From: Candidatus Omnitrophota bacterium
GTDB lineage: Bacteria; Omnitrophota; Omnitrophia; Omnitrophales; Aquincolibacteriaceae
NCBI GenBank assembly: GCA_016930235.1
Contig: JAFGHI010000047.1
Coordinates: 86,215 to 150,214, forward strand
Direction of reading: 5' to 3'
Length of the DNA stretch: 64,000 bases
Shown here: piece by piece, positions 31,099-57,900 of the stretch
How positions within the stretch are numbered: position 1 is the stretch's first letter
Layout of the letters: each line of letters begins with the position of its first letter
Notes under the pieces: generated by a model
Told to the model about the DNA's origin: nothing
Seen by the model: the letters and a program-made list of their open reading frames with translations, nothing else
Databases searched by the model: none
Translations under genes and position numbers: made by a program

Positions 31099-32203
31099 TT
31101 TTTGATGGTTTTTGAGTTAGATAGCCCAAAAATCTGTCAGCAGCATGATCCCATGTCGAATTTTTCTGCACATAAACTCGGCCCGCTTGCCCCATTCTAT
31201 TTCTAAGATCAGCATCCGTAGCAAGACGAATGATTGCCTGATCGATCTCATTTTCATGAGCCGGGTTGATCAATAACCCTGCCTCTTGCGGAACTGTCTC
31301 TATAAAGCCCTCGGTATTCGAAACAATCACGGGAAGACCGCAACTCATAGCTTCATGACAAGCCACCGAATTGCCTTCGTCATCAGGTAACATCATAAAA
31401 ATATCCGCCATATTGTAGTAATCCGCTAAACTTACGGTTTCCCCTCCAAAATAAATTTTGTCTTCTAACTGAAAATCTAAGACGGCACGGCGAAGATCAG
31501 GCTCGTTCTTCCCTTTACCCAAAATAAAATATCGCAGGCGGGGGATAGATTGACTAAGTCTTTGAACTGCCTTGATTCCTTTCCACGTCCCCTTCCGATC
31601 CTCCAAAGCGGAAACATGAATTACCACAATGTCGTTATCTGAAAAACCGAATTTCTGCCGCAACATTTTCCGTGTCAGCGGGTTCGGAGAAAAATAATCC
31701 GGGTCGGTACCGACCGGCAAGACAGAAACCGAACGTCGGAAAAATCCTTGGGCTTCGTCGGCAATCCAAGTTGCGTCAGCAAGGATACGCTTCGCCACTG
31801 CTCCCCATCCATATTTTCGAAACGAGTGATAGCGATGGGGCACCGATGAATAGGGATAACAAAGGTACAATGTCAGAGGTAGCTCTTTAAAATGGCTTAC
31901 AAATTTCCATGTAGGGCCTTCTCCGTAATCCGCGAAAAACACGACTATGTGGTCATAAGAATGCTTTAAGAAATGTTGCCCGTAAAAAGGTAAAACCGTC
32001 AAATATTTGAAATACCGCCCTGTTGGATAAGTATAGACTTTGACCGCTGGGGCAGGCTGTATAAGGGGTTCCATAAATTTAGACGCTGAAATGATGGATG
32101 CTTCATGCCCCTTTTTGACAAGTGAATTTGAAAGACTGATAATCAGTGTTTCAATGCCACGCCTTAAACGAAAAGTGTGGAAGTGCCAAAACGCAATCTT
32201 CAT
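31091..32203 (-). CDS. glycosyltransferase family 4
   Basis: MKIAFWHFHTFRLRRGIETLIISL...; HEAMSCGLPVIVSNTEGFIETV. Confidence 0.8.
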   Translation of the reverse strand: MKIAFWHFHTFRLRRGIETLIISLSNSLVKKGHEASIISASKFMEPLIQPAPAVKVYTYPTGRYFKYLTVLPFYGQHFLKHSYDHIVVFFADYGEGPTWKFVSHFKELPLTLYLCYPYSSVPHRYHSFRKYGWGAVAKRILADATWIADEAQGFFRRSVSVLPVGTDPDYFSPNPLTRKMLRQKFGFSDNDIVVIHVSALEDRKGTWKGIKAVQRLSQSIPRLRYFILGKGKNEPDLRRAVLDFQLEDKIYFGGETVSLADYYNMADIFMMLPDDEGNSVACHEAMSCGLPVIVSNTEGFIETVPQEAGLLINPAHENEIDQAIIRLATDADLRNRMGQAGRVYVQKNSTWDHAADRFLGYLTQKPSKNE

Positions 32204-33024
32204 TTTTTGACTCCGACACCCAGAATTTGAAGCGATATCTTTTTTCGAATCGTTCGAGGGACTGGAACCATTCGATGGAAAAACTGCCCCAATAGGTAGA
32301 TCATTTCACTCGTCCATGAATAACGCCGGTACCAAGGCGGCCAAAAAAAGAGTGTCTTCCATGGATAAATGCCGTCCAGGACAACGTTTTGAAGTCCCGA
32401 ATCACTCATTTCTTCAGCTAAAATGTCTGCTGTCATGGCATCCACCGGAGGTTGATCTGTATAACCTGGCCATCCCAATTTTTCCCAATAAGCCTTCCAC
32501 GGATGAGCTGTATGCTGAACAATAATAGCTACATGTCCTCCCGGCTTGGTCACCCTAACCATTTCGTCAATAGCTCTTTTTCTCTGATCCTTTTGCGTAA
32601 AATATTCCAAGACTGCCTGGTTGAAGACCAAATCATAGGTATCTGAGGGAATTCCCATTTGTAGAAGGTTCCCCCGGGTAAAACGAATCCGTTGAGCTTC
32701 CCCTTCGGTCTGCACTTTGGCCCACAAACCCTTCCCGATCGAAATTGCCTCCTCATTGTAATCGAAGGCATCAACACGAAACCCAAGCAAAGCCAATGAA
32801 ACGGCGAACATGCCCGTACCGCAACCAGCTTCCAAAACGCGAGTTTTCGAACCCGGATGCCGAACCGTTTGTTTCAACATCCGGCTAATCCATTCGGACT
32901 TTCCATACCGCAAGAGATTCTCTCGGTTCATCGCAGTCGGATCAAACCATGAAAGATCTCCGCGTTGATAGAATGGCCTCCATCGTTCACCGGCTTCGCT
33001 TTTAAGGCCATTGACTACTGCCAT
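32200..33024 (-). CDS. class I SAM-dependent methyltransferase
   Basis: VLEAGCGTGMFAVSLALLG (motif I), YDLVFNQAVLEYF, TKPGGHVAIIV. Confidence 0.8.
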   Translation of the reverse strand: MAVVNGLKSEAGERWRPFYQRGDLSWFDPTAMNRENLLRYGKSEWISRMLKQTVRHPGSKTRVLEAGCGTGMFAVSLALLGFRVDAFDYNEEAISIGKGLWAKVQTEGEAQRIRFTRGNLLQMGIPSDTYDLVFNQAVLEYFTQKDQRKRAIDEMVRVTKPGGHVAIIVQHTAHPWKAYWEKLGWPGYTDQPPVDAMTADILAEEMSDSGLQNVVLDGIYPWKTLFFWPPWYRRYSWTSEMIYLLGQFFHRMVPVPRTIRKKISLQILGVGVKK

Positions 33025-33057
33025 GACTCACTCCTTTTCAATAAACTCTTTTTGAAC

Positions 33058-36000
33058 CTAAGCATCCGCTTTCGTACAAATATAAATCCAATCTGCTCCT
33101 TTTGTTGAGCCTATCACATAATTATGGGCTTCTACTTTGAACCCCGCCTGTTCAAGACAAAGGAAGAAATCACGGCCGAATTTCATAATCGGTGTTCCTG
33201 TGATCACTTTTCGAGGATCTTTTTTTTCGGTTTTCTGCAATTCTCTATCGCTAAATTCCGAAAGGATCAAAATTCCACCTTTTTTCAAGCACCGATATAA
33301 TTCTTTAATGGCCTTTTCCCAGCCCTCAACGTATTCAAGGACATGGAAACAGATAACGAGATCAAAAGCCTCATCTCGAATACCTAAATGGCATACGTCC
33401 ATAACACTATCTGCCGGTATGAACCCTCGATCAATCGTCACGCAAGAAACTCCTGCCTCCAATAAATATTTCTTCAATCCTAACCAAGGCCCTATATCTA
33501 AACATTTCATCCCCTTTCTTAATAGGCGCCTATCTTCAAATAGCTGGACAAGCCCACGATGCCTTTCCAAACTACGGCATTTTGGACACTGAGCCCCTGG
33601 CCGATAAGCCCAAGGAGAAACAACGGGGAAAAACTCAACCCCCTTCCAACCGCAAATGCTACAAACTTTACCCTTAAAACTTTGGGGGACTATTGCATTC
33701 ACGACCGATAACCCAAATTTGACTAAAAGCCCCTTCGCCCATTGAAGAAACTGTCCGCTTTTGATCCATTGCCGTAATTTCACTATAAAATTTTTTGTTG
33801 TTCGCTCATCGCCTAATTTGGAAATCTGACCATAAAATAAATCTATATATTTTTCAGCGATCGTTCCCCAGCAATATTTCTCTTCAACAACGATTCTCCC
33901 GGTTCTCCCCATTTCTTTCCTTAAATTTTGAGAGTTTAAAAGTTTTTTGATGGCTCTGCCGAGTTCTTCAGCATTGGTTTCATCCACCAGGAAACCCGTT
34001 TCCTTTGTCACTAAATCAGGGTAAGGCACATGCCTGGAGACAATCACCGGAAGCTCCATCGCAAAAGCCTCTAAGATCACATTAGGAAATCCCTCGCCTT
34101 TGGACAAAAGGATGAAAATATCCGCCAAGGCATAGTAAGGGAGAATATCTACCCCTTCCGTCACAAAATGAACATGCGAATTAAGATTTAGTTTCTGAAC
34201 TAAACGATGCAACTTTGAATAATAGGGCCCGGCCCCGACTATCCAATACCGAACAGGAATATTCTCATCAACCATTTTCCGGACAGCCCTAATGACATGC
34301 TGGATACCTTTGCGTACCTCAAGAGCCGAAACAGTAAGCAAAACGCATTCGTTTTCATAAATTCCGAACATTTTTCGGATATTGTTTCTATTGTGATCTT
34401 GCGGTTTGAATTTTTGATGATCAATCCCATTAGGAATAACCTGCACCTTCCTTCCAAAAAAGGAGGCAACACCTTGAGCCATCGGACCCGTTTTTACAAC
34501 AATCCCATCAATTGCTTTATCGAACCTTAAAAACTTGAATTTCTTGAACCGGTGCGACGTATGCTCAAAAGGATACCCAACGATAAAATTAATTTTGGTT
34601 TTTTTAATATACCGTAGGATTTTAAGCGGAAGGGCCTCGCCACAATCCGAAAAGTAAATATTGACGGCATCATAATCATTTTTCAGGAACCAATAAAGAT
34701 AGAACGGGATAACAAGAATAGCTTGAAAATACCTGAAACGCGGACTTTTGATTAGTTTCACTTCCGGAGAAACTGCTGTTACGGAACACCCTAGGTCACC
34801 GCTCCATGTATAGAGATCGACCTTGTGTCCGCGCGCCGCCAATTCATTCGCCAAATGAATGCTTGAACGTTCAATCCCTCGAAAATATCGGAACAAAAAC
34901 GGAGAAATGATCGCTATTTTTAAAGGACGTTTCCTTATCCCCTGCCATTCTTCTTTTCCCAAGTCGAAACAATCACGAAAAAGCTTGAGATATTCATTGG
35001 CAATAACACTCCAGGCATATTTTTTAACGGCCTGTTCACGGTTTGCTTTCCCCATTTGCAAACGCTTATCAGAAGAATCAAGAAGGTCGGAAACAACCTG
35101 GCACACTTTACCAATTTCTTCCCGTTTGACATAATGAGCTCCATTCTGAGCAGCCATTTGATTTAGCGGAGGATTGTCTGCAAGCACAAGCGGTAGTCCG
35201 GAAGACATTGCTTCCAACAAAGCTAAAGGTGACCCTTCCCCTTTGGAAAGAAATAAGAAAATATCGGAGGCAAGATAATAATCTGAAGTATTTGTAACCG
35301 CGCCTCCAAACTTAACATGTTTTTCAAGGCGGTGCATTTCAACATGTTTTTTTAACTTTTTGGCCTCCGGGCCATCTCCCAAAACAAGATACAAAACATC
35401 CGGATGACTTTGGCGAACCTGATCAATAACATCAATGCAATAATCTATCCCTTTACGCTTTTCAAATGCGGCAATCGTAAGAATAATTTTCATATCTAAA
35501 GGAAGGCCTAACTTCGCCCTTAAATCTTTTTTGTTCGTATTCTTTGCGAGACAAAACTCCTCGGGATTAACACCGCTTGAAATCACCGGGATTTTCCTGT
35601 TCAGCAAAAACGCCGCCTGCTCAGCGACATAATCGCTGACCCCAACAATGACTTTTGCATGCTTCACTAAAAAACATTTTTCCATCATACGGTAACGGTG
35701 TGGAACTTGTTCGGCAGGATAATGAAGAATCAAACAAGTCGAAGCTAGAAATTCAGGCGCCAATCGAAAAGCAATATTCTCGCCATGCCATGCAAACAAA
35801 ATGCATGTTACATCGGGTCGCAATTTTCTTAAAATAAAAGGATAAATAATGCCTGCGAAAAAGCTGCGGAAATATTTGGGCAAGCAAACAGTATGAAGGT
35901 GCACATTTGTCTCTAACGGTCCCCAAGGCCATGCCTTATTTTCTTTCCACGTAATAATGTGAACATCAACACCTTGTTTTGAAAAAGAATTAGCCACCTC

Positions 36001-36066
36001 AACCGTAAAACGTTCGATCCCTCGAAGGTGACGAAATAAAAAAGGTGATATTAAAACAATCTTCAC
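33058..36066 (-). CDS. tri-domain enzyme: GT4 - GT4 - SAM methyltransferase (1002 aa)
   Basis: Two full GT4 units (MKIVLISPFLFRHLRGIERF...EAMSSGLPLVLADNPPL; then LKIAIISPFLFRYFRGIERSS...LEAFAMELPVIVSRHVPY). Then a zinc-ribbon-like CSICGW...CPKCRS and the methyltransferase core MKCLDIGPWLG...FDLVICFHVLEYVEG...LKKGGILILSE. Confidence 0.8.
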   Translation of the reverse strand: MKIVLISPFLFRHLRGIERFTVEVANSFSKQGVDVHIITWKENKAWPWGPLETNVHLHTVCLPKYFRSFFAGIIYPFILRKLRPDVTCILFAWHGENIAFRLAPEFLASTCLILHYPAEQVPHRYRMMEKCFLVKHAKVIVGVSDYVAEQAAFLLNRKIPVISSGVNPEEFCLAKNTNKKDLRAKLGLPLDMKIILTIAAFEKRKGIDYCIDVIDQVRQSHPDVLYLVLGDGPEAKKLKKHVEMHRLEKHVKFGGAVTNTSDYYLASDIFLFLSKGEGSPLALLEAMSSGLPLVLADNPPLNQMAAQNGAHYVKREEIGKVCQVVSDLLDSSDKRLQMGKANREQAVKKYAWSVIANEYLKLFRDCFDLGKEEWQGIRKRPLKIAIISPFLFRYFRGIERSSIHLANELAARGHKVDLYTWSGDLGCSVTAVSPEVKLIKSPRFRYFQAILVIPFYLYWFLKNDYDAVNIYFSDCGEALPLKILRYIKKTKINFIVGYPFEHTSHRFKKFKFLRFDKAIDGIVVKTGPMAQGVASFFGRKVQVIPNGIDHQKFKPQDHNRNNIRKMFGIYENECVLLTVSALEVRKGIQHVIRAVRKMVDENIPVRYWIVGAGPYYSKLHRLVQKLNLNSHVHFVTEGVDILPYYALADIFILLSKGEGFPNVILEAFAMELPVIVSRHVPYPDLVTKETGFLVDETNAEELGRAIKKLLNSQNLRKEMGRTGRIVVEEKYCWGTIAEKYIDLFYGQISKLGDERTTKNFIVKLRQWIKSGQFLQWAKGLLVKFGLSVVNAIVPQSFKGKVCSICGWKGVEFFPVVSPWAYRPGAQCPKCRSLERHRGLVQLFEDRRLLRKGMKCLDIGPWLGLKKYLLEAGVSCVTIDRGFIPADSVMDVCHLGIRDEAFDLVICFHVLEYVEGWEKAIKELYRCLKKGGILILSEFSDRELQKTEKKDPRKVITGTPIMKFGRDFFLCLEQAGFKVEAHNYVIGSTKGADWIYICTKADA

Positions 36067-38561
36067 AGCGAATAGTCTCTGTGGGTTTTCGCCCTGTTCA
36101 TTTTCATGCTTGTTTGTTCCACAACTTCAAGAATCGCATCGGCAGTTTTCTCCCACGTGAAGGACTTAGCTCGAGCTAAACCGAGATCTCTTTGCTTCTG
36201 CTTCCAGCCTTGACCTTGTTGACTCATTCTCCAGATCGCATCAGAAATGGATTCGGCATCGTTTGGATCAAAAGGCAATCCAACATTACCTGCGACTTCC
36301 GGCAATGTTGTCGCCGAAGAGTAAAGGACAAGACATTGGCATGCCATCGCTTCAAATAACACCAAACCAAACCCTTCGAAAATTGAAGGGTAAATCATCG
36401 CCTCGGCACCGGAATATAAAACCGGCAATTCCCGGGGTAGCACTTCACCCAATATCACGACATTCTCTGATAAACCCAATTCTCTCATCCCGCTTTTGAT
36501 TTTTTCGGCCGATTCCTTCCATTCCAACGACCCGCTTAACACTAATTGATAGGGCCATTGATCTTTCTTTTTAAGTATTGCTACGGCCTCAAATAATTTT
36601 CTGTGGTTCTTATGGGGCCAAAATCCAGCCGGATAAAATAAATAAGGTTTGTGGATTTTGTATTTTGAGCGAATCGGGAGGACTTCATCCTCCGATTTTC
36701 TTGTAAAGAACCCGCTATCAACCCCGTAGGGGACGACATAAATTTTATTTCCTTCAATCCCGTATGTTTCCATAATTGTCTTTTTAGTGTGGTCGGCCGG
36801 GGCAATGATGGCATCGGCATGGGTTACGGCTTCTCGGTATTGCTTACGCTTAGCATGCCTCGTTTTAAACTCGTCAATATATTCATAAATCAAATCATGG
36901 ACGACGACAATCGAGGGCAAACAAATCGACCGATCGATATCCGGAGAAGGATATAATACAGCGCCGATGGATGAATCTTTTTCGATCATCTTCGCCACGG
37001 ATTCCTCTCGAGCGAATCCTCTCAATAATTTCTTCACCGCTCGTTTCCAAAGAGGGGCGGGTTCCCATGTCGGGATAACTGTTAGTTTCATACGATGATC
37101 CAAAAAAGGCTTCCACAAATGCCCATTTTGATTTGATGCCATAATGACAGACTCAAAGGGCTTCTTCATCTCGGCAAACCCCTTCATAATTCCCTGCGAA
37201 AATGTTTTCCCTCCATACAACTTATATGCAGGAACATCAAGCATAGAAATTGCAAATTTGAATCTCGACGCTGTTTCATTATCAACTCGACCCCGGACTT
37301 CTGTTTTAAGAGAAACAACTTCCGTCACGAAATCAAGATAATCATCCGCTACTTTATTGTGATCATAGAGCCGGCTCATTCTTTCAAAACCAGCTACGCC
37401 CATGTTTTTAAGCATTTTTGCATCGCTTGCAAGCCGGATAATCGCTTCGGACAATTCAATGCCATGATCAGGTTTCACGAGTATTCCCGTTACTTGATCC
37501 TCTACTGTTTCGGCGATTCCCCCAATCCGGGATGCAACCACCGGAATACCCATCGCCGCCGCTTGAGCGCATGTATAAGAAAAACTCTCATAGATGAGCG
37601 ATGGAACAACCGCAAGATCAGCTCTTCTGTACCATTGTAGAAGTGTCTCCTGATCAACAAAACCCACGCAGGTAACCTGTGCTTCTAGCCCAGCATTTTT
37701 AAAATATTGTTTCATTCTCTGACCTTGAGTTTGCTTTTCTCCGTAATATCTGTCTTCACCAATGATCACAAAATGAATATTTTTGACATCCGCGCACACT
37801 TTCGATATGGCATTTTTAAGAACCTCAATCCCCTTCACCCTCTCAAGCCGTCCGACATACAGGACAATCTTTTTGCCAGTAAGCTTACCTTCCGGATCTA
37901 CCTTTGAATATTCAGTTTTGTCTTGAGTTAACCGGGCGGTTTCAAACATCTTCAAATCTAACGAATTGGGAATGACCTTCTTTATGGAATTCTTCGATGA
38001 GCAAACGCTCAGTATGACCCTCATCATATCTCCCGAGGGCGCTGTAATTCCATCTGCGCGACAAATACAATATTTCTCCATCCACTCAATTACGGCTGTG
38101 GAAAAAGGCATCTCGGAAGGGGCATAATACTTTTTTAAAATAAAAATAGGCGTATGACAACGGACAAGAACAGGATGTCTCTTTTTTCTTAATAGATGAA
38201 AAAAACCTTCGCCCTCAACCTCTGCAAATTCAATACAATCAATGGGAATGGTTCTTTCAAGCTTTTTTAACTTTTGGGAAACTTTAAAGCTGTAAAAGAG
38301 TTGATTCGCGGTACGGAAAAACCGGCCCACCAGAAACAATCGTGTCGGCCAATAGGGAGAAGCATGATAAATTCGATGAACTGCTATCCCTTCTCTTTCT
38401 TCAATCTCCGGGATTTCTTTAGTACAACGAGAAGCAACGATCGTCACACGATGACCTTTCTTCACTAATGCTTTTGAAAGATAGTAATTACACATAGCAA
38501 TCCCGCCATATCCGCTGTGCGGCGGAAACCAGCGATTGACCAAAACGATGCTATAGCTCAT
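36063..38561 (-). CDS. tandem GT4 - GT4 glycosyltransferase (about 830 aa)
   Basis: MSYSIVLVNRWFPPHSGYGGIAMCNYYLSKAL... with AQAAAMGIPVVASRIGGIAETVEDQVTGILV. A second unit follows, ending ...FEAMACQCLVLYSSATTLPEV. Start set at the ATG with ATGA overlap; the ORF-track start is 38606. Confidence 0.8.
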   Translation of the reverse strand: MSYSIVLVNRWFPPHSGYGGIAMCNYYLSKALVKKGHRVTIVASRCTKEIPEIEEREGIAVHRIYHASPYWPTRLFLVGRFFRTANQLFYSFKVSQKLKKLERTIPIDCIEFAEVEGEGFFHLLRKKRHPVLVRCHTPIFILKKYYAPSEMPFSTAVIEWMEKYCICRADGITAPSGDMMRVILSVCSSKNSIKKVIPNSLDLKMFETARLTQDKTEYSKVDPEGKLTGKKIVLYVGRLERVKGIEVLKNAISKVCADVKNIHFVIIGEDRYYGEKQTQGQRMKQYFKNAGLEAQVTCVGFVDQETLLQWYRRADLAVVPSLIYESFSYTCAQAAAMGIPVVASRIGGIAETVEDQVTGILVKPDHGIELSEAIIRLASDAKMLKNMGVAGFERMSRLYDHNKVADDYLDFVTEVVSLKTEVRGRVDNETASRFKFAISMLDVPAYKLYGGKTFSQGIMKGFAEMKKPFESVIMASNQNGHLWKPFLDHRMKLTVIPTWEPAPLWKRAVKKLLRGFAREESVAKMIEKDSSIGAVLYPSPDIDRSICLPSIVVVHDLIYEYIDEFKTRHAKRKQYREAVTHADAIIAPADHTKKTIMETYGIEGNKIYVVPYGVDSGFFTRKSEDEVLPIRSKYKIHKPYLFYPAGFWPHKNHRKLFEAVAILKKKDQWPYQLVLSGSLEWKESAEKIKSGMRELGLSENVVILGEVLPRELPVLYSGAEAMIYPSIFEGFGLVLFEAMACQCLVLYSSATTLPEVAGNVGLPFDPNDAESISDAIWRMSQQGQGWKQKQRDLGLARAKSFTWEKTADAILEVVEQTSMKMNRAKTHRDYSL

Positions 38562-40657
38562 ACGCCTGATTTCTCCTTTAAATGCCGACAATGGATTAAA
38601 GGACAATCGATATAGCCGGGATAAAGAATATTCACTGAATGGTACCGCCTTTGAAGGCTGTCCACCAATTGATCGAAAGAGTAACGATGATCACGCGGGG
38701 GGTTATGTACCTCCATCCAAATTTCTTCAATCGGTATCTTAAAGAAATTTGGATCTTCTAAAATTACATTATATTCCCCCCCTTCAATATCCATTTTAAA
38801 AAGATCGACTTTTGTTATCCCGTTATCTTGGCAAAATTGAGAAAAACTCTTGCTTTGAACTTCAACCTTCTCATCTGGAAACTCCGCGTTATAAGGATAG
38901 AGAGAGGAGAAACCGGACATTTTAGATATATAAAAATCTGTAAGCGTTCCTGGCTGAGACTGGATTGCAAAGTGATAAGGATAAATTTTCCCTTTAAAAC
39001 ATTCTTGCCGCGCGGTCCTCTCCAACACCTCATAAACATAAGGATTGGCTTCTATGGCATGAACTTCCGAATTTGGCATCTTCATATGGGCCAAAAGGGA
39101 GAAAAGGCCGATATGAGCACCGACATCAACAACTATTTTTTTATTCCGACCATATCGAATTCGGTAATTCTCCGTAACAAATATTTCGTCAAAAACCCTC
39201 CAACTAGTAAAACTATCATAAACTTTGACCCTGGCGCCGCATCGGAACAAAAACTCCCGAATTTCGACTTTGTCAGTTCGTGCCGCTAAATACTGCCTCC
39301 AATTCTTAAGATAAAAAAATGCTTTAAACCGGACCATCCAATAAGCAGGCCGCCAAGCGAAATAACGCTTCCACAAATCATCAACCCTTGCGCTAAAATC
39401 AGCCCTTTCAACCGTGATGGATCTTTCCAATATCTTTTCAAAATTCCTGGAGGCTATTTCCCAATTCCATTTATCACGAACATATTGTTTCCCTTTTTGA
39501 GACATCGATTTCCAAAGATCCTCTTCTTTAATAAGCTTCAGCACTTTTGAAGCAAATTCCTGGGGATCAAAATCGGAAAGAAACCCTACTTCTCCATCCA
39601 ATACGGTTTCCCGAACACCCCCCGACTTAACGGCTACCACAGGAAGGCCCATAGCCATCGCTTCGAGCGGCGCCATTCCAAAGGGCTCTAGTCTTGAGCC
39701 GTAGACGAAAACTTTGGCTGTGCCATAAAGTTCGCATAATTCTTTCTCTGAAACCCTTTCTCTAATTTCTACTTGAACCTCTAAGTTTTCACAAAGCCGA
39801 ATAAGGTTCTTGCGACGCTCTTCGCGACAGCAATCAACAACAACCACCCATCGGGGGCGTTTGTCTTTGGGAATCAAACTCAAAGCTCTTACGACAAAGG
39901 CATGCCCTTTATTTGCCGTCAAGGACCCCACTGTTAAAACAAAGTTTCCGCGTTCCGGTCCCGTAGGCGCCATCACGAATCGCTCTAAATCAATGGCCGG
40001 ATAAAAAACTTTCGCTTCATAACCATAAGCCATAAAGATTTTCTCAGCTGAGAAATAAGAGTTTGCTAATACCGTCCCGTGACAGCATCTCGGAAAATTT
40101 TTATCGGCCTCCTTTTTCCACAAATAATGAAATAGAGCAATTGCTGGTTTATACCAAATCGAGACTATCTTGGAAACTAGCGGCTTGGCTTCCCCATCGT
40201 TTTCCAGCTCATCATGAAAAAGTGCCGGCGGGTCATAAAAAAGGCGTTCCGGTTCCTGAAGGTAAAGAAAAAAACGTGTTTTAAGATACCGGGTTAAATG
40301 GGGAATTTTGACATATTGATCAATCCCGATAAAAACGAAATCGTAATTTTTCCGGTCTATTTCTTTCGCTAATATTTTTGCGGTTTGATCCAGGGATCTG
40401 AGATTTCTCCAAAAAAAGTATGCATTAACATACTCACGAATGATCGGACAATGCCCAGAAATACGCGGCTTTAAAAAAACAGGGATTTCATAGCACTCAT
40501 CAGCCATGGATGATAGAGGAGAAAAATCTTCCCCAGCTTTGTTAAACCGATAGAGATCTAAGTGATACCCCATCGCTTTCAACATCTTCATGACACCATG
40601 GAGTAAAACAACCGCTCCGCCGAGATGATGGTGATTAAAGACGGCTACCTTTTTCAT
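38558..40657 (-). CDS. GT4 glycosyltransferase fused to a C-terminal FkbM-family methyltransferase
   Basis: N-terminus MKKVAVFNHHHLGGAVVLLHGVMKM...LEAMAMGLPVVAVKSGGVRETVLDGEVGFL (GT4). C-terminus IVVDVGAHIGLFSLLAHMKMPNSEVHAIEANPYVYEVLER (FkbM-type motif). The first in-window start codon is TTG at 40681; the ATG at 40657 is preferred. Confidence 0.8.
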   Translation of the reverse strand: MKKVAVFNHHHLGGAVVLLHGVMKMLKAMGYHLDLYRFNKAGEDFSPLSSMADECYEIPVFLKPRISGHCPIIREYVNAYFFWRNLRSLDQTAKILAKEIDRKNYDFVFIGIDQYVKIPHLTRYLKTRFFLYLQEPERLFYDPPALFHDELENDGEAKPLVSKIVSIWYKPAIALFHYLWKKEADKNFPRCCHGTVLANSYFSAEKIFMAYGYEAKVFYPAIDLERFVMAPTGPERGNFVLTVGSLTANKGHAFVVRALSLIPKDKRPRWVVVVDCCREERRKNLIRLCENLEVQVEIRERVSEKELCELYGTAKVFVYGSRLEPFGMAPLEAMAMGLPVVAVKSGGVRETVLDGEVGFLSDFDPQEFASKVLKLIKEEDLWKSMSQKGKQYVRDKWNWEIASRNFEKILERSITVERADFSARVDDLWKRYFAWRPAYWMVRFKAFFYLKNWRQYLAARTDKVEIREFLFRCGARVKVYDSFTSWRVFDEIFVTENYRIRYGRNKKIVVDVGAHIGLFSLLAHMKMPNSEVHAIEANPYVYEVLERTARQECFKGKIYPYHFAIQSQPGTLTDFYISKMSGFSSLYPYNAEFPDEKVEVQSKSFSQFCQDNGITKVDLFKMDIEGGEYNVILEDPNFFKIPIEEIWMEVHNPPRDHRYSFDQLVDSLQRRYHSVNILYPGYIDCPLIHCRHLKEKSGV

Positions 40658-40691
40658 GAATAATTTTTCTTTATCATTCAAAGAACATGCG

Positions 40692-42572
40692 TTAAAAGAA
40701 TTTTTGCTCTTCCCAATATTGGTAAAACTTACCTTTCTTTTCTATCAACTCATTAAGCATACCTTCCTCAGCCAAACTCCCGTTTTCAATCACAAGGATC
40801 TTGTCAGCATGTTTAACGGTTGATAACCGGTGCGCAATCACGATAGAGGTTCTTCCCTTGACAGCTACATCGATTGCTGTCTGAATTAATCGCTCGGTTC
40901 GCGAATCAAGTGCGCTTGTGGCTTCATCTAAAATAAGTATTTCTGCTTCTTTAAGAAGGGCCCTTGCAATAGCCACCCGTTGTTTTTCACCGCCTGAGAG
41001 CCTGACACCACGGTCACCTATCATGGTATCGAGCTTCTCCGGTAACCGACTGACAAACTCACTCAGTTGCGCTTTGGCAATGGCTTCATAAATTTTTTCT
41101 TCCGGGCACTTCCCCTCTAATCCATAGGTAATATTTGCTCTGAGCGTATCATTAAACAGCAATACGTCCTGACTGATAAAAGAGATGTGCTGTCTTAACG
41201 ATTGAAAAGTAAATTCCCTGATATCTGCTCCATCAACTAATATTGTCCCCGGGGGACAGTCATAAAAGCGCATGAGTAAGTTGATGATCGTTGTTTTCCC
41301 TGCTCCCGTAGGACCGACTATCGCAATCATCTTTCCTTTCTCGATGCTGAAACTTAGATCTTTTAATATGGGCGTATTCTTAAAATAAGAAAAACTCATG
41401 CCCTTAAATTGAATCTCTTTTTCAAGTCCATTGAATTGAACCGCACCTTCGATGACAAAATATTTATCCTTATCATCACGCATCTGCATAATTTTTGAAA
41501 TAGGGCCGCTCGTCCTAGCCAAAGCCAACCTCATTCGATTAAGAACGCCGAATGACCCCATCGCACGCCGAATGACAAAAAAGAACACCAAAAGACTAGA
41601 AATTTCCGCTGCTTGTTCCTTGACGATCACAAAAGCCATCGAGCCCACCAAGATCAGCAGTGCTGCTAAAGTAATAATTTCATGAAGCGGCTGGATAAGA
41701 AACTGCTTTTTAGTCATGCTCACCTGAATCTCTGCAATTAAATCACTGGCCTTTGCAAATTTCTTTTTTTCATCTTCCTCTTTGGTGTAGGCTTTCACCA
41801 AAGGGATGCAAGACAAGATATTAAAAATATCTTCGCTGAGGCTCTGGCTCGCTTGTGCGAAATAGCTTGAGGTTCTTCTCATGTTCTTAACCAGCCAGCT
41901 CAGCGAATAATGCAAGATGGGAAAAACAATTAGACTGAAGATGGTCAATTTCCATGAAAGGAAAAGCATCAAGGCCAAGTAGATAAAAAGAAGGAAGACT
42001 TCAGACAGAAGGGCATGCGCTTCCCGGATCATATACCCTAATTCATGAGTAAACCCTCCCAGCACGGTATGGAGATATCCGGTATTATTCCTGTCAAAAA
42101 ACATCTTGCCGAAGCTTAAATAACGCTCGAAGATTAATTTTCTCAAATTACTGCAAAATTTTTCAATTTGATAGGCAAGCAAAACCGTCGAGCCATACAT
42201 CAAAACATTCTTCGTGACACTCGCAAAGAAAATGACCGCAATAATTAACAAAAAGGTATAGGCGTTCGGTCTTTCATATATGACCTCTGGCATCATATTA
42301 ACAAGATTCCCAAGGATGGGCATCTCGCGAATAAAGCTATAGTCTCTCTCAATCATTCCCTTCATCATGGGGACAAGAAGACCTATGCTAATACCCTCAA
42401 AGACAGCTCCAAGTAACGAAAGAATTGCCGGGATCACTAACAGAATGGGTTTCGCATCCAACCCTCGCATAAAATCTCGCAAGTACCTGAAGGTAAGATA
42501 AATCCTTGCGTTTTGGAGCTTTTCTTTGAGGATCCTTTTACTCTCTCGTTTTTTTTCTGTCCAATAACTCAT
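40692..42572 (-). CDS. ABC exporter, fused TMD-NBD half-transporter (MsbA/PglK-like lipid-linked glycan or lipid flippase)
   Basis: 6 TM helices, then GPTGAGKTTIINLL (Walker A), LSGGEKQRVAIARAL (signature), ILILDEATSALD (Walker B), IVIAHRLSTV (H-loop). Confidence 0.9.
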   Translation of the reverse strand: MSYWTEKKRESKRILKEKLQNARIYLTFRYLRDFMRGLDAKPILLVIPAILSLLGAVFEGISIGLLVPMMKGMIERDYSFIREMPILGNLVNMMPEVIYERPNAYTFLLIIAVIFFASVTKNVLMYGSTVLLAYQIEKFCSNLRKLIFERYLSFGKMFFDRNNTGYLHTVLGGFTHELGYMIREAHALLSEVFLLFIYLALMLFLSWKLTIFSLIVFPILHYSLSWLVKNMRRTSSYFAQASQSLSEDIFNILSCIPLVKAYTKEEDEKKKFAKASDLIAEIQVSMTKKQFLIQPLHEIITLAALLILVGSMAFVIVKEQAAEISSLLVFFFVIRRAMGSFGVLNRMRLALARTSGPISKIMQMRDDKDKYFVIEGAVQFNGLEKEIQFKGMSFSYFKNTPILKDLSFSIEKGKMIAIVGPTGAGKTTIINLLMRFYDCPPGTILVDGADIREFTFQSLRQHISFISQDVLLFNDTLRANITYGLEGKCPEEKIYEAIAKAQLSEFVSRLPEKLDTMIGDRGVRLSGGEKQRVAIARALLKEAEILILDEATSALDSRTERLIQTAIDVAVKGRTSIVIAHRLSTVKHADKILVIENGSLAEEGMLNELIEKKGKFYQYWEEQKFF

Positions 42573-42693
42573 GATGGGGTCCGACTTTCCTTGTTCCCGT
42601 TTGGGTGTTTAGCTACAGCTTCGCCCTCTCAGTCCCAAATATCCTTCATGGAACCTACGAGGTCATATCCAACTAACAAGTTACTAGCTTTCT

Positions 42694-43323
42694 TTAAAGC
42701 GGTTGAACACAAGCTTCGTCCACTTGGACTGACACCGATTGCATTAATAAATCAAGCGAGATGACCAAACGGCAGTGCCGATCCTTGCGGACGATATACC
42801 CTTCCGTTCCTTTAAAAGGACCTGTTGAAATATAAACCCGGGCGCCTTCTTTTAAGTAAGGGAACGGATCCAAAGGTATTTCCTCCTCGACAAATTTTCG
42901 AAGACTTACAATATCCTTCTCGGGAACTTCGATCGGATTCGACGGCTTAGGCCCTACAAATCGAACAGCGCCGGCAGTATTTAGCACCTGCCATCTTTCC
43001 TTGAAAGGAATACGAACGAAAAGATACCCTTTGAACAAAGGCTCCTCGATCAATTTTTTGCGATCGGACCATTGCCGTGAAATTCGTCTCATGGGCAGAA
43101 AGGTTTCGATCCCTTTCTTTTGTAATTCCCGATCCGTTAACTTTTCATGCCGGCTCTTGGCATAAAGTGCAAACCAACGTACCTGGTTCCACTTCTTCTT
43201 GATTCCCTCATCCCAAGAAACAGCATTCCAAGATTCTTGCGACTCTTGAATCATGGGATAATCCCCCGTGAAGACAGTTAGAAAACACGGAAATTTATAC
43301 TCATTCTCCCGCGTCTTCCTCAA
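42694..43323 (-). CDS. NusG-family paralog (NGN + KOW), operon-specific transcription antiterminator of the RfaH/UpxY/LoaP type
   Basis: NGN: VRWFALYAKSRHEKLTDRELQKKGIETFLPM...EEPLFKGYLFVRIPF. KOW: EGARVYISTGPFKGTEGYIVRKD. About 40 N-terminal residues fall outside the NGN fold. The ORF-track start is TTG at 43323; an internal ATG lies at about 43254 (MIQESQ). Confidence 0.75.
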   Translation of the reverse strand: MRKTRENEYKFPCFLTVFTGDYPMIQESQESWNAVSWDEGIKKKWNQVRWFALYAKSRHEKLTDRELQKKGIETFLPMRRISRQWSDRKKLIEEPLFKGYLFVRIPFKERWQVLNTAGAVRFVGPKPSNPIEVPEKDIVSLRKFVEEEIPLDPFPYLKEGARVYISTGPFKGTEGYIVRKDRHCRLVISLDLLMQSVSVQVDEACVQPL

Positions 43324-43358
43324 TCTCCATTTAATTCAACGGTGAACTAGGAAGAGGG

Positions 43359-43577
43359 CTACGAATTGTTCATTCGGTTAAGGAGCCAGGCATCTAAAAC
43401 ATCTTTCTTAAAACGCCATTGCCCGCCTATTTTAGTAGCCGGAATCTCCTGTTTTTTCAAAAGGCGGTATATCGTCACCAAGTGAAAACCAAGATATTTG
43501 GCCGCTTCCTTTGGCGTCATGATTTGGGTTCTCTCATGCCTGCGTCTTTCTGGGTGTTCTGACTTCTGGGGATCCAT
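43359..43577 (-). CDS. excisionase-family helix-turn-helix DNA-binding protein (MerR-superfamily HTH_17), first gene of the operon
   Basis: MTPKEAAKYLGFHLVTIYRLLKKQEIPATKIGGQWRFKKDVLDAWL, 72 aa. ATG at 43577 is preceded by AAGGAG 7 nt upstream. Confidence 0.7.
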   Translation of the reverse strand: MDPQKSEHPERRRHERTQIMTPKEAAKYLGFHLVTIYRLLKKQEIPATKIGGQWRFKKDVLDAWLLNRMNNS

Positions 43578-43906
43578 AATCTTACTCCTTCTTTTTATGC
43601 GTTGCTTGTTTTTGTTGTACTAAAGTTATAATTCTTTACACTCTTTTATTGAAGATACAGTCAATATTATAAGGTGTCAAGTATTGATAGTTGATACTAT
43701 ACGCTATGGAGAACCTAACCTTTTGATTTAAAGTAACTTAGGTAAATTTGAGCCAAACAAGAATTTCATTGATTCTATAGGCTAAATATACTAAGCTTAA
43801 GGGGAAATGCGTAAGGCAAGAAAGAGCGCCTACTAGCAATGTGATGCAATGAGTAACACCAAAAATACCCGATTTTTAATGCTGTCGGTGCTTCTATAGA
43901 TGGTAT

Positions 43907-43936
43907 TTGACGAAGAGGCTATTTTAAAAATACAAT
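43907..43936 (+). promoter_or_regulatory. sigma70-like promoter (TTGACG - 18 nt - TACAAT) for the plus-strand secreted-protein gene
   Basis: tTTGACGaagaggctattttaaaaaTACAATagg read directly. About 45 nt upstream of the ATG at 43984, which has AAAGGAGA 8 nt upstream. Confidence 0.5.
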
Positions 43937-43983
43937 AGGCCTCGTAAACAAACGCAATCGTATCTCAAAAAGGAGACGAAACT

Positions 43984-44493
43984 ATGAAGAAACTCTTTCC
44001 CCTGTTTCTGGTGGTACTTGCTTTATTGATGGCCCCCATAGCTTTTGCTGGCGATGTTTGGGAAATGGCCGAATCTGACCAATACGGAACCAAATTGGGC
44101 GGGATGTTAGGCCGAGGCGGCATTAATATTGCAACGTGCTTTGTCGATGTCATTGTTCACACCGTTGAAGGAACACAAGAAGGCCCTGCTTTTGTGGGGA
44201 CTCTAGGAGGCCTTGGCAGCGGTATTGCTTGCACAGCCTTGAGAGTTACTTCCGGAGCTTTGGATGTTGTCACTTCGTGGGTTCCTGGATTCAACGGTTT
44301 CCCAGTTTCAAAATCTTACTCGGATTGTTTGGATTTTGGAGGAACCTCTTCGTATTCTTCTTCAACTTCCGGATATTCGGCTCCAGCTTATTCGTCTTCA
44401 AGCACGTCAACATACGCAGCACCTGCTCAATCATCATCCTCAAAGACAAAAGCCGTCGAAGAACACGACCCGATGAAATATGTAAAGAAATAG
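43984..44493 (+). CDS. small secreted protein with Ser/Thr/Ala/Pro-rich C-terminal tail; paralog of 47742..48113
   Basis: Signal peptide MKKLFPLFLVVLALLMAPIAFA. Conserved core KLGGMLGRGGINIATCFVDVIVHTVEGTQEGPAFVGTLGGLGSGIACTALRVTSGALDVVTSWVP shares the K-x-G-R-G-x-x-N-x-x-T ... P-V/F-x-G ... pattern with the 47742 protein. Tail SSYSSSTSGYSAPAYSSSSTSTYAAPAQSSSS. Confidence 0.6.
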   Translation: MKKLFPLFLVVLALLMAPIAFAGDVWEMAESDQYGTKLGGMLGRGGINIATCFVDVIVHTVEGTQEGPAFVGTLGGLGSGIACTALRVTSGALDVVTSWVPGFNGFPVSKSYSDCLDFGGTSSYSSSTSGYSAPAYSSSSTSTYAAPAQSSSSKTKAVEEHDPMKYVKK

Positions 44494-44500
44494 TTCGAAG

Positions 44501-44539
44501 AAAAAAACGCCCCGTCAATATTGACGGGGCGTTTTTTTA
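44501..44539. terminator. bidirectional rho-independent terminator shared by convergent genes 43984..44493 (+) and pyrE (-)
   Basis: AAAAAAACGCCCCGTCAAtaTTGACGGGGCGTTTTTTT: perfect 12-bp GC-rich stem, 2-nt loop, T-tract on the plus strand and A-tract (T-tract on the minus strand). Confidence 0.85.
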
Positions 44540-44550
44540 TGTCTTGACTC

Positions 44551-45096
44551 TTACAAACCTAAATCGGCAAGCGAAAACATCGGTGAGTAATTATAGGGCG
44601 CCAAGGCCTCACGAGCCCCTTCATTACGATCCACTAAACAAATCACTTTGACAATCCTGGCCTTGAGTTTTTCCACCTCTTGAATAGCCGTTAGAACGGA
44701 CCCCCCTGTCGTAATCACGTCTTCAACCATGACAACGCGATCTCCTTCTTCTATAGGAGGTCCTTCAATCACTCTCTGCATCCCATGCTCCTTAACGCTC
44801 TTACGCACAATAAAGGCTTTAATAGGGTGTCCCGTCTGAGAGCTAAGAAGAGCTACGGCGGCAGCGATTGGATCTGCGCCGATCGTCGGCCCGCCTATAG
44901 CATCGACTTCCTGTCCATGGAGCATTGAAAGGACACTTTTCGCTACCATGAGTATCCCCTGAGGATCCAAAGTGACTTGCTTGCCATCAATATAGAAATT
45001 TGCCTTTTTCCCTGAAGCAAGTGTCCGCTCCCCTTTGATAACTGCCTTCTCTTTGATTGTCTTAAGCAAATCCTCGCGGAGTTTATTTTCGTCCAT
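44551..45096 (-). CDS. pyrE: orotate phosphoribosyltransferase
   Basis: GERTLASGKKANFYIDGKQVTLDPQG..., PRPP-binding VMVEDVITTGGSVLTAIQ. Confidence 0.9.
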   Translation of the reverse strand: MDENKLREDLLKTIKEKAVIKGERTLASGKKANFYIDGKQVTLDPQGILMVAKSVLSMLHGQEVDAIGGPTIGADPIAAAVALLSSQTGHPIKAFIVRKSVKEHGMQRVIEGPPIEEGDRVVMVEDVITTGGSVLTAIQEVEKLKARIVKVICLVDRNEGAREALAPYNYSPMFSLADLGL

Positions 45097-54988: not shown

Positions 54989-57900
54989 TTACGCCATTTG
55001 GGCGAGGTATTCGGCAACCTGCTGCTGGGTGTAGATCCACTCCAGCGCATCACGGGTGATTTCAAGGCTGGTTCCGTTATACCGAACGGCTCCGCCAAAG
55101 ACTTCGGGAATCTTCTCCAAAAGCTCCGCTGTTATTGCTGATTCGGAAGCAAAAACAGAAGACAACACCATCGCTACAGGAAATGCCGAAATCGACCGGA
55201 TATCCCGTAAATGGACAAACCGTAAGAGATACTCAGCAGAAACGTCATACGAGGGAATCCCGTAGACCAAAGCATTTGGGTTCTTCTCAAAATATCTCGC
55301 AAGATGAAGGGCCGTCGTTTGAGGATCTAAGACGATCATTTTGGCGATGCCGGATTGACGAACCGTCTTTAAAAATTCCGCGTGCGCGGGATTCTCAACA
55401 TCCCGCGGTGTGACAAAAACACGGATATCCGCTTGGACACGGGACCCATAATCCATCCTGAGTTTTTGAATCTTCTCCAAATAGGTCAAAAGCCATGCTT
55501 TGATTTGTTCGAGCTCATCACTCGTCTCATCTAAAGGAAACCCGAAGGCAAAATTGAGTTTTTCTGCGGGATGCTCTGAAAGAAACTGGTCATAGAGATT
55601 AAAGACTTCTGCCATCTTCCCTTGGACAAAATCCTCAGTCTTAGCCTCATCCCAGGCATGGACAACTTCACCAGCAACAACCTCCCCCGATTGCCTCAGG
55701 ATGTATTCGGGATTCAGAGCTTCAACGCGTACCGCCTCACGAACTGCATCGAAATTGCTACGAGTCTGATCTGCCAAAGCCCCGGCTGCTTCTTCGGCCA
55801 AGACAGTTTCAATTCCCGCTAAAGCATTCAAGGCCTGATGAGCGAGATCTTTCAAATCAAACCTGAGTGGTTGGGACATCAACCGCAATTCTGATTTTCC
55901 TTTCAATTCGCGCAATTCGCGGCTAATTAAAACCTGCGCTATTCCTAAGACCCGAAACTCAATATTTTTATCATGCTCTGTTATATCAACGATCGGAGAT
56001 TTTGAAAAAACCCGCTTGACGGTTTTAAGTTGTTCCAAGAGTTCCTCGAGATTCAAATCCTCCTCAAACCGAATCAACGCCCCGTCAACTTTTGCTTTTC
56101 GCAAGTCCTCTAAATTTATCGAGTCAGGATTTGCTATGGCCGGATAAGACGTTCGTAAATAATACTTACTATAAACGTCAAGATGCTGCTGAACGATTTT
56201 AAGGATTTCTGACCGCGTTAACGCAGCATTCTCGCCGGTTTGAAGTGCCTGGATCATTTCATCAATGAATTGCTTAGGCATTGCTAACGAATCCTCTTCC
56301 CGGAGTTCCGAGCGCTTAGCATCTCTTGTCTTCATTTTGATTGTCCAAGCAATCGGATTTTCTCCATCATAAAGGGTACCCACTTCAACATTTTCAAATC
56401 CATGCCCTTCCATTAGAGCCTGAATACCCGCTTCATCTTGAAACTTTTCAGCCGCCTGAATCGTATCCTTCCACCCGAGCTCCTTGATATCCCAGTAGGT
56501 TTTTGATTTAGCTGCCAACTCAATGGCCTTGTCTCCGTTTTCTGTCATCACACTTGCCAACTGATCTAAAATGGCTACGCCGATTTCATCACCTTGAAAC
56601 TCACCCACTGAAACTTTCAATTGCTCAGCTATTTTTTGTCTCAGCGTTTCAATGCGCTCAGCGATTTGCTTTTTTAGCAAATTCCGCCTACGAACACTCT
56701 TTGCGCTTGTCGTACTGAAAGATTGAACCAGCCCAAAAAGACCGCTCTCATCAATCCACGACTTCTGCTTAAGCCCTCGAACCATTGTCTGGACACGTTC
56801 CGAAAGAGGATGGGTGATCACAAACATAAGGATTCCGCCGGGCGCAAGGACGCGATCAATCTCAGCCAAGGATTTATTCATATCCGTAAACTCTAAGGCC
56901 TTTGTTCCGATGACCACATCAAAAACCTCGTCGCCAAAAGTCATATTTTCCGCTGACATTTGCTTAAATGTAACTGTCTCGGATCCCGTGAATTGTCTGG
57001 GTGAAAACTTGGCAAAATCAATCCCTGTCAATTCAAAATCTGCTGATAAACCGCGAGCCGCTTCCAGGGCATCTAAATCCGGCCCTGTCCCTATCTCTAG
57101 AACTCTCGCATGGGGCTCTGCTTGTTTGAGCGAAGAGAAAAATTCCTCCCAATAAGAATTAATCTGAGCGCTGCCCTCACGATTGGCCCCGGCCTGCTCA
57201 TCTCTCTTCTTCCAAAAATAATCCCACATGAGCTTACGTGACTGCGACAACATCGAAACGGTTTGTTCACCTTTCATCTGAAGAATACCCGCTGTCGAAT
57301 TGCGCAGCTCAGATCTTTCGATTTCATCCGAGCGAAAATCGGGGCGGCGGGCATCGAATCTTCGACTGAGACGAACTGCCGCTTTCAACATGGGAAAAAC
57401 ATCCCGGAAATTCGTATTAGAACCCCTTCCCGAATCAATCCAGGCAATCCCTCTTTGAGTAAATTCGTAGGGCGTATATTTCAAGAAGGCCAAAAGCAAT
57501 TCGAGGTCAAATGCGTATCCCGTCTCCGTAAGATTTCCCCGCAATATTTCGTAGATGTTTCTCGGCAGAACCTTGAGCGCAATCTGGGTATCGCTTACGT
57601 TACGAAGTGCCGGGGCTATCTTATGGACGGCACCGACAAAAGTTTCGCTCCGGAGATTAGCATACGGGCTTCTCCCCAATGTAACAGAATCGATAAGGTG
57701 CCGTGAACCTATCGCCATCCCGGCCCCTTCCTCAATAAGGGGCTTGAGAACAATTCCGATCTGCCTTAAATCAATACTGAGATCAGCATCCGTATAAATA
57801 AGGTAATGAACCCCCATCTCCAAAAGTTTATCCAACCCCAAATGGATCGCACCGCCCTTACGGCTTTGATTTGCATAGGCCGCGCCTTTTTCTCTCGCGA

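Follow-up and report, generated by a model that had tools for sequence, protein, structure and literature searches.

Layout of the locus

The locus described here lies in a 64,000-nucleotide (nt) stretch of DNA from a Candidatus Omnitrophota bacterium (assembly GCA_016930235.1, contig JAFGHI010000047.1, positions 86,215 to 150,214; "the window" below denotes this whole stretch) and comprises a pair of genes at the 5' end of a polysaccharide operon, together with a conserved ops-like element which follows the pair (Table 1). The first gene encodes a small helix-turn-helix (HTH) protein and the second a paralog of the elongation factor NusG, both on the reverse strand and at the positions given in a preliminary description made from the letters alone. 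The same description had the pair leading a 35-kb unit of 29 genes; the pair indeed heads a long glycan operon, which spans 35.0 kb (43577 to 8598), but the number of co-directional open reading frames (ORFs) comes to 27 instead of 29 (ORFs of at least 100 amino acids (aa) counted). According to Pfam, the genes following the ABC exporter encode GT4, GT2 and GT9 glycosyltransferases, methyltransferases, a Wzy_C protein, a deacetylase, DegT and an initiating sugar transferase fused to a dehydratase.

Table 1. Features of the gene pair, the ops-like element and the adjoining operon (positions within the window)
Feature	Coordinates	Strand	Place or role	Composition or basis
HTH_17/excisionase-family gene, 72 aa	43359..43577	-	First gene of the operon	Pfam and NCBIfam
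NusG paralog gene (UpxY family, NGN and KOW), 186 aa	42694..43254	-	Second gene of the operon	
ops-like element	42614..42662	-	Spacer between NusG paralog and ABC exporter genes	Hairpin, box GACTGAGAGG, GCGAAGC, TGT
Sigma-70-type promoter	43652..43680	-		-35 TTGACA 43680..43675, 17-nt spacer, -10 TATCTT 43657..43652; consensus scan
HTH-NusG spacer, 104 nt	43255..43358	-		RNAfold
ABC exporter gene (ABC_membrane and ABC_tran), 626 aa	40692..42572	-	First gene 3' of the ops-like element	Pfam
Other 24 co-directional glycan-synthesis genes	8598..40681	-	Presumed antitermination targets	Pfam, ORF list
Divergent gene of a 169-aa signal-peptide protein	43984..44493	+	Shares a 406-bp promoter region with the HTH gene	

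The NusG paralog

The ORF listed for the paralog (42694..43323) begins at TTG, and an ATG preceded by GGGGGA is found at 43254; this ATG is most likely the real start, giving a protein of 186 aa and making the listed ORF too long. An identical 186-aa protein is present at NCBI, named UpxY family transcription antiterminator (Candidatus Omnitrophica bacterium). The protein carries an NGN domain (PF02357 in Pfam; 69 bits, E 5e-19) and a KOW signature (EGARVYISTGPFKGTEGYIVRK / GARVYISTGPFKGTEGYIV) legible in its sequence. Among the NCBIfam models, it exceeds the cut-off of the UpxY model NF033644 (143.8 bits vs 100, with model positions 1-164 of 164 covered) and stays below those for RfaH (TIGR01955, 77.4 vs 144.5 bits; NF006534, 59.5 vs 124), LoaP (NF033641, 67.2 vs 125 bits) and housekeeping NusG (TIGR00922, 25.3 vs 135.7 bits). 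These scores, along with a neighbourhood devoid of secE and rplK, bear out the earlier proposal of a specialised, non-housekeeping paralog. The best sequence match in the PDB is RfaH (E 2e-9), and an AlphaFold2 (AF2) model built on a 20-sequence alignment shows a confident NGN domain and a C-terminal domain (CTD) folded as five beta strands at low confidence (predicted local distance difference test, pLDDT, 55-70). The motif W-S-D-R occupies the tip of the beta2-beta3 hairpin. The same placement at the 5' end of the operon is seen in relatives. The paralog itself is an ordinary member of the UpxY family and is already annotated as such.

A conserved ops-like element after the paralog gene

The spacer 42573..42693 had been proposed as a place to look for an ops-like pause element, and it does contain a conserved element, related to opsE of Bacteroides fragilis. 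The element was found by aligning the DNA 3' of the paralog stop codon in loci which had been fetched by protein and not by motif: a conserved block, consisting of CCTCGTAGGTCAC, a loop and then GTGACTGAGAGGGCGAAGCTGTG, follows the paralog even though the next gene differs. In the window, the arms of the hairpin are CCTC (42662..42659) with GAGG (42628..42625), by which the hairpin is lengthened in Omnitrophota, and GGTTCCA (42655..42649) with TGGGACT (42637..42631). The conserved box adjoins a mini-hairpin core, GCGAAGC (42624..42618), which is followed by TGT. Written as a transcription signal, the element thus consists of an RNA hairpin with the 3' arm GKGACT, a box GARRGG, GCGAAGC, and YNT followed by a purine. 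Its 20-mer GACTGAGAGGGCGAAGCTGT (42634..42615) is unique in the window, with 0.01 occurrences expected by chance. Across Omnitrophota, the element was present in 13 of 16 assessable loci, in two of which (L001 and L017) it is displaced downstream by about 500 nt and immediately precedes the next gene.

The consensus of elemental pauses is G-10/Y-1/G+1, and the ops sequence of Escherichia coli is GGCGGTAGCGTG. A pause is predicted at T 42615 of the window; with this T set as -1, G is found at -10 and -11, so that, as far as the letters go, the element would fit the pause consensus apart from the +1 position in the window. Furthermore, GGCG at -11..-8 and T-1 align with the E. coli ops without a gap. 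The ATG of the ABC exporter lies about 43 nt past the predicted pause.

For the hairpin, a covariance model was built from a seed of nine sequences of equal geometry. It matches the window at 42610..42659 (44.9 bits, E 1e-10). In the alignment of 83 matches, 94% of the cells pair and one variable pair covaries (CG 26, AU 18, GU 6, UG 5), with a covariation score that none of 500 shuffles reached; because the alignment was fitted to the structure, this is taken as moderate evidence. At 46% of 125 listed sites the stem has 6 bp or more, as compared to 21% in shuffles. With regard to the core, GCGNAGC and GCGNNAGC are known ultra-stable DNA mini-hairpins (PMC13037366); on our own reading of the sequence, the GCGNNAGC form also fits GCGGTAGC of the E. 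coli ops.

Rfam holds no family for the element: neither a search of 42000..44600 by E-value nor one of 15 motif-bearing loci at the gathering threshold returned one. In the literature, no description was found of the element or of NusG paralogs in Omnitrophota, although this coverage was incomplete and does not prove novelty. While the type of paralog is known, neither the HTH first gene nor the element was found described.

Occurrence of the element outside the locus

A blind scan of metagenome contigs for the 17-mer GACTGARRGGGCGAAGC returned at least 120 stretches, among which the 17-mer is invariant by construction and only the flanks and neighbouring genes are informative. Pooling with the motif copies of the loci fetched earlier gave 134 distinct sites among those listed. 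A NusG paralog adjoins 70 of the 134 listed sites: 25 of these lie 31-152 nt after the gene and 45 immediately before it, and most other listed sites are on short contigs. In 29 of 43 listed cases of the "before" arrangement, the [A/G]TG of the motif stands in frame as the start codon of the paralog. Where enough flank was available, the listed motif-only sites precede epimerases, UDP-glucose dehydrogenase, Wza-like exporters, a WecA-like transferase, GT2 enzymes and, once, a non-ribosomal peptide synthetase.

The association extends to the protein. All 66 listed motif-adjacent paralogs have W-x-D-R at the tip of the beta2-beta3 hairpin (WSDR in 60), including the "before"-group paralogs from soil and peat, which are only 26-42% identical to the window protein and yet retain W-x-D-R. 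Scalindua relatives, about 40% identical, have neither W-x-D-R nor the element, and Phycisphaerae metagenome-assembled genomes (MAGs) have other hairpin tips together with a variant element, GACGGGGGCGAAGCC, after the gene. In Bacteroides, the beta-hairpin is the class-defining part of UpxY (PMC11685472). From this, the beta2-beta3 hairpin would be the part that touches the upstream duplex. W-x-D-R was found in 128 of the 150 nearest representatives of 50%-identity clusters, the family comprising 11,049 representatives at E <= 1e-3.

The named cases outside Omnitrophota carry divergent variants of the element only, namely those of the Phycisphaerae MAGs and of a plasmid of Chondrinema litorale (Bacteroidota; L163, NZ_CP111044). 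On the plasmid (region 5900..6492), a gene of the UpxY family with the tip RQWSDRKK is preceded, about 40 nt before its ATG, by a leader copy GTGACCCAATGTGGCGAAGCCATA with the GCGAAGC core. This gene heads a cluster of an adenylate-forming enzyme, FabZ and a ketosynthase beside lanthipeptide genes; the GCGAAGC core thus also occurs outside glycan operons.

One metagenome contig (L074, Ga0210384_10000192) carries two copies of the motif, at 294-310 and 1981-1997 on the reverse strand and separated by 1.7 kb. A NusG-paralog gene comes after the first copy; after the second comes a coding sequence with a similar N-terminal part, cut off by the end of the contig. This arrangement recalls the multiple UpxY loci of Bacteroides.

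The HTH_17 protein and its promoter

An alignment of paralog homologs was used to scan species-representative genomes, which gave 34 loci: 17 from Omnitrophota (49-70% identity), 12 from Brocadiales/Scalindua-type and Planctomycetota (about 40%), 4 from Phycisphaerae-type Planctomycetota (30-34%) and one from a further MAG (38%). Of the Omnitrophota loci, 16 include upstream DNA, and in 15 of these a homolog of the HTH gene lies directly upstream of the paralog and on the same strand; none was found upstream of the paralog in the Planctomycetota loci of this set. The same order recurs on metagenome contigs (M17 peptidase, SpoU, phosphoribosyltransferase, a divergent protein of about 160 aa, HTH_17 and the NusG paralog, followed by glycan genes), with the glycan genes 3' of the pair varying between contigs.

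The protein matches PF12728 HTH_17 (65.7 bits vs a cut-off of 27) and TIGR01764 "excise" (63.5 vs 28.8); these matches agree with its first designation as a 72-aa Xis/MerR-type HTH protein. The AF2 model (pLDDT 82) has a winged-helix fold, a disordered N-terminus and, at the C-terminus, a short helix of 14 residues. Its Foldseek neighbours include RdfS, BldC bound to promoter DNA, MerR-family DNA-binding domains and phage Xis, the similarity to BldC and RdfS amounting to Foldseek template-modelling (TM) scores of 0.55-0.70 at about 22-24% identity. A sequence search of the PDB gave nothing meaningful. An AlpA-like antiterminator was also considered as a precedent and dropped, because AlpA of Pseudomonas aeruginosa is a large Q-like protein of eight helices; AlpA is not among the structural neighbours.

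A core of 51 aa (ERTQIMTPKEAAKYLGFHLVTIYRLLKKQEIPATKIGGQWRFKKDVLDAWL) is almost invariant. Among 16 distinct genes, pairwise identity of the core at codon positions 1, 2 and 3 is 0.92, 0.995 and 0.50; synonymous sites are therefore saturated and the constraint acts on the protein, whereas the adjoining paralog is only 60-73% identical between the same lineages. Such purifying selection rules out a decaying relic. Likewise, the same HTH protein heads loci with differing glycan genes, which argues against a locus-specific regulator of the Bacteroides style. Of the roles suggested for the protein at the outset, neither a locus-specific regulator in that sense nor a relic of a recombinase-controlled invertible promoter is supported.

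The HTH protein and the paralog can also be found apart. One Omnitrophota lineage (L162) has two HTH_17 paralogs 2.5 kb apart (in the regions 8001..9452 and 10584..11454), both under the same type of promoter; the second heads a NusG-paralog unit, and the first heads a single DegT gene ending in a strong terminator, with neither a NusG paralog nor an ops element. Conversely, paralogs with the element and no HTH gene occur at L039, at L013 and at all non-Omnitrophota sites. Since the HTH gene occurs without NusG at the DegT gene and NusG/motif loci occur without the HTH gene, the HTH protein goes with the promoter and not with the elongation step. Judging by its modelled fold, HTH_17 is most likely a small BldC/RdfS-like DNA-binding regulator of the promoter region held in common with the divergent secreted-protein gene; if acting at that promoter, it would most likely autoregulate the unit, outside the elongation complex.

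The promoter architecture of the window aligns in 16-19 HTH-bearing loci, with TTGAC, a 17-nt spacer and a TAtnaT -10 box. Conserved AT-rich boxes were found upstream of the promoter (tATAaaAATA..aTAgCAATAC) and in the spacer (tttATAgTAATAa). ATA is present at nt 5-7 of the spacer in 14 of 17 loci, boxes inside a promoter spacer being unusual. Dyad symmetry in the spacer/-10 region scores 98 over the whole locus set, as compared to 87.9 +/- 2.7 in shuffles, with none of 500 reaching that value. The 5' leader (43578..43700), the other place proposed for an ops-like element, contained none and showed only the conserved promoter. The transcribed leader (43578..43651, reverse strand) and its equivalents are rich in A and C and poor in G, and contain a partly conserved box (t.AAC.ATCAAC..TATAACAAAA) located about 20-35 nt ahead of the ATG of the HTH gene.

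A divergent branch of Omnitrophota, represented by L014, L015 and L016, has an HTH variant (MTLKEVAKYLGLHPISIYRLIK...), a WSDR paralog, overlapping ORFs and another -35 region (ATTGTA).

Comparison with known systems

The nearest known system is UpxY/opsX/UpxZ of B. fragilis (Chatzidaki-Livanis et al., 2009, 2010; Saba et al., 2024, PMC11685472), which shares the NCBIfam family of the paralog and its 5' place in a polysaccharide operon. The experimentally defined ops of the PSE and PSA loci are CTGCGAAGCATA and CCGCGTAGCGCA, each after a hairpin; opsX sites are pause sites, those of class 1 combining a pause hairpin with a GCG..AGC hairpin of the non-template strand, and the NGN domain reads about 40 nt of DNA, in the non-template strand and the upstream duplex (PMC11685472). 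In Omnitrophota as in Bacteroides, the element joins an RNA hairpin to a GCG..AGC mini-hairpin and a sequence resembling a pause; both elements measure about 40-50 nt, and the core GCGAAGC is identical to that of opsE. Nevertheless, the layouts differ. The element described here lies 3' of the paralog gene, while in Bacteroides it lies in the leader upstream of upxY, and the leader 43578..43651 contains no such element. There is no upxZ, the next gene being the ABC exporter with no small ORF in between. Moreover, one locus per contig was seen, as against eight cross-regulating loci in Bacteroides; the element and the WSDR tip are nearly constant across species instead of locus-specific; and an invariant HTH_17 gene comes first in the Omnitrophota loci. 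An invertible promoter of the Bacteroides type was ruled out, no inverted repeats bracketing the promoter having been found in the window.

RfaH and its ops (JUMPStart) of E. coli share with the module the proposed loading at a paused complex through a non-template hairpin (GCGGTAGC there, GCGAAGC here), and the targets of both are long envelope-glycan operons. Unlike RfaH, the paralog has its gene in cis, as part of the target operon, falls below the cut-offs of the RfaH models and shows no sign of an alpha-helical autoinhibited KOW in AF2 (the CTD being modelled as beta strands at low confidence), and the hairpin loop is one nt shorter. The E. coli-type ops GGCGGTAGnnTG is absent from the window, which contains only a single hit with one mismatch, inside a gene, where 1.9 would be expected by chance. 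LoaP of Bacillus velezensis and TaA of Myxococcus are likewise cis-encoded NusG paralogs heading very long biosynthetic operons. The targets of LoaP are polyketide clusters with leader terminators and an RNA hairpin, whereas no such terminator follows the element here, and the LoaP model falls short of its cut-off, as given above.

For the HTH protein, the closest comparisons are BldC of Streptomyces and RdfS, the excisionase/activator of an integrative and conjugative element (ICE), which are similar in size (about 70 aa) and have the same winged-helix fold. BldC and RdfS act as transcription regulators at promoters and not solely in recombination. The Omnitrophota protein differs in having no developmental or mobile-element context and in always being the first cistron of a glycan-related unit. 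It also differs from MerR regulators, which have a long C-terminal coiled-coil dimerisation helix, an effector site and a promoter spacer of 19-20 bp, by its 14-residue helix and 17-bp spacer. Excisionases come with a cognate integrase, a mobile element and att sites, in contrast to the fixed position and purifying selection seen here and the absence of an integrase match among the scanned ORFs of the window.

Proposed mechanism and alternative explanations

The locus is probably, though with some reserve, a processive antitermination module of the UpxY/ops type which heads a variable glycan locus and is laid out unlike the Bacteroides paradigm. The family assignments are established here, as are the conservation of gene pair, promoter and element and the link between the element and NusG paralogs; pausing, recruitment and antitermination, as well as a DNA target for the HTH protein, are inferred. 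RNA polymerase would start at the promoter (43680..43652) and transcribe the HTH and NusG-paralog genes in an unmodified state. About 60-80 nt past the paralog stop codon it would meet the ops-like element (42662..42614), where a hairpin in the nascent RNA, together with the G-10/T-1 pause sequence, would halt it and the non-template strand would expose the GCGAAGC mini-hairpin. The NGN domain of the paralog could then bind the paused complex via the mini-hairpin and the box GACTGAGAGG in the upstream duplex, displacing housekeeping NusG, and the polymerase so modified would proceed through the glycan genes, roughly 34 kb in all, without terminating prematurely.

Several observations weigh against this mechanism. 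At L014, L015 and L016, the HTH gene and the paralog are present and the element was undetected within about 400 nt after the gene. The window has A and not G at the predicted +1. Only one variable pair underlies the covariation of the hairpin, in an alignment that had been fitted to the structure, and the invariance of the 17-mer among the metagenome matches is built into the search. The whole spacer between the NusG paralog and ABC exporter genes folds no better than shuffles (z 0.58), and a DNA nearest-neighbour model does not predict the GCGAAGC mini-hairpin, which may be a limit of the model. Terminator-like hairpins inside the glycan block are no more frequent than in shuffles. As regards the HTH protein, no operator could be established, because the dyads are weak, differ in sequence between loci and are weakest in the window; such a weak dyad is odd for an invariant recognition helix.

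The alternatives differ in which component they reinterpret. For the paralog, its NGN domain and KOW motif would equally suit a housekeeping NusG displaced from the secE-nusG-rplK cluster; this is almost inconceivable given the scores on TIGR00922 and the UpxY model, the presence of the paralog at glycan loci in every relative examined, and a nearest solved relative that is RfaH and not NusG. For the HTH protein, a decayed excisionase, or a remnant of an invertible promoter as in Bacteroides capsule loci, is suggested by nothing further than membership of TIGR01764 "excise" and PF12728 and by the RdfS excisionase as top structural neighbour. The extreme purifying selection makes such a relic very improbable, as do the chromosomal position, fixed between the same housekeeping genes in many species, the promoter without bracketing inverted repeats, and the absence of any recombinase or integrase match among the scanned ORFs of at least 100 aa in the window, the last two of which had already been apparent to the preliminary description. 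A subtler alternative makes HTH_17 an obligate partner of the paralog in elongation control, i.e., a loader, a specificity subunit or a UpxZ-like antagonist binding the paralog or RNA polymerase. The adjacency of the two co-directional genes in 15 of 16 Omnitrophota loci speaks for it, as do the near-invariant core with its saturated synonymous sites, suggestive of constraint by more than one partner, the want of a convincing invariant operator, and the precedent of Bacteroides, in which a second small protein, UpxZ, binds UpxY. However, the same element accompanies paralogs at many loci that have no HTH gene (L039, L013, group B), a paralogous HTH gene heads the DegT gene of L162 with neither NusG paralog nor element, HTH_17 has the fold of an ordinary DNA-binding winged helix, and AlpA, at first thought comparable, is of another build. 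An elongation role for HTH_17 is therefore rather doubtful.

For the element, the question is whether it acts as RNA instead of non-template DNA, either as a hairpin bound by the KOW domain in the manner of LoaP or as a translation-initiation module with a ribosome-binding site. The upstream hairpin covaries, RNA hairpins are reportedly used by LoaP, and in 29 of 43 listed "upstream" cases the GAGAGG box and [A/G]TG fall on the Shine-Dalgarno and in-frame start codon positions of the paralog. Yet no ORF begins at the motif in the window and in most Omnitrophota loci, where the next ATG is 20-45 nt away; the invariant GCGAAGC makes a poor RNA hairpin, but as DNA it is a known mini-hairpin, and it forms the core of a validated ops site; and recognition in Bacteroides proceeds through NGN and DNA, not through an RNA hairpin. 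Action as RNA is thus considered unlikely. A bolder version of the two-protein idea would have HTH_17 hand the paralog to RNA polymerase from the promoter, or stay in the elongation complex, giving an Omnitrophota antitermination system unlike RfaH, UpxY/UpxZ and LoaP; separately, the 20-nt element GKGACTGARRGGGCGAAGCYNT would be the recruitment site common to a very large W-x-D-R clade across several phyla. In this full form, the proposal is improbable.

With the UpxY/ops-type module as the preferred interpretation, the value of the locus rests on the invariant HTH_17 first gene, the ops-type element placed after the regulators, and the evidence that this element, built on the opsE core, is common to many paralogs of a large clade. 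For specialised NusG paralogs outside Proteobacteria and Bacteroides, the locus offers a concrete predicted recruitment site in an uncultured phylum. The distribution of the element suggests that UpxY-like factors of a large clade, in several lineages, use one ops-type sequence built around a DNA mini-hairpin, GCGAAGC. Because the site comes after the regulator gene, synthesis of the factor would itself be independent of antitermination, in contrast to the positive autoregulation of Bacteroides; in other lineages, the same site falls on the paralog's own start codon. The near-invariant HTH_17 first gene, in turn, is a lineage-wide addition that marks the promoter of Omnitrophota surface-glycan loci. 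Apart from these aspects, the element can be used as an annotation marker for operons controlled by NusG paralogs in metagenomes.

Genomic neighbourhood and further observations

The upstream side of the module consists of the divergent 169-aa gene, a putative bidirectional terminator and then housekeeping genes, the genes nearby including a phosphoribosyltransferase, a SpoU methylase and a GDPD; a convergent mutY-like gene marks the far end of the glycan block. The 169-aa protein has a signal peptide and a Ser-rich tail, with no Pfam match. Its homologs (E 1e-40 to 1e-57) occupy the same divergent position in 17 related loci, and the gene is a conserved neighbour of the module, with which it shares the promoter region. 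Between the convergent 169-aa and phosphoribosyltransferase genes lies a perfect palindrome of 19+19 nt (AAAAAAACGCCCCGTCAAT/ATTGACGGGGCGTTTTTTT, 44501..44538), which looks like a bidirectional intrinsic terminator insulating the module from upstream transcription; weak Rfam "leader" matches nearby are due to this palindrome.

Within the glycan operon, a terminator-like hairpin (TTATGGGGTATCCCCATAA) followed by T7 is found at a gene junction (30261..30279, reverse strand) and is a candidate signal for the antiterminator to override. The RNA of the HTH-NusG spacer is strongly structured (-32.9 kcal/mol, z -3.3); the corresponding spacers at most other loci are structured too, yet without a common sequence, and such structure could tune the ratio between both proteins. 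Elsewhere in the window, and unrelated to the module, an ORF of 2995 aa (54989..63976, reverse strand) has Pfam matches to methyltransferase, HEAT/TPR and glutamate-dehydrogenase-like families.

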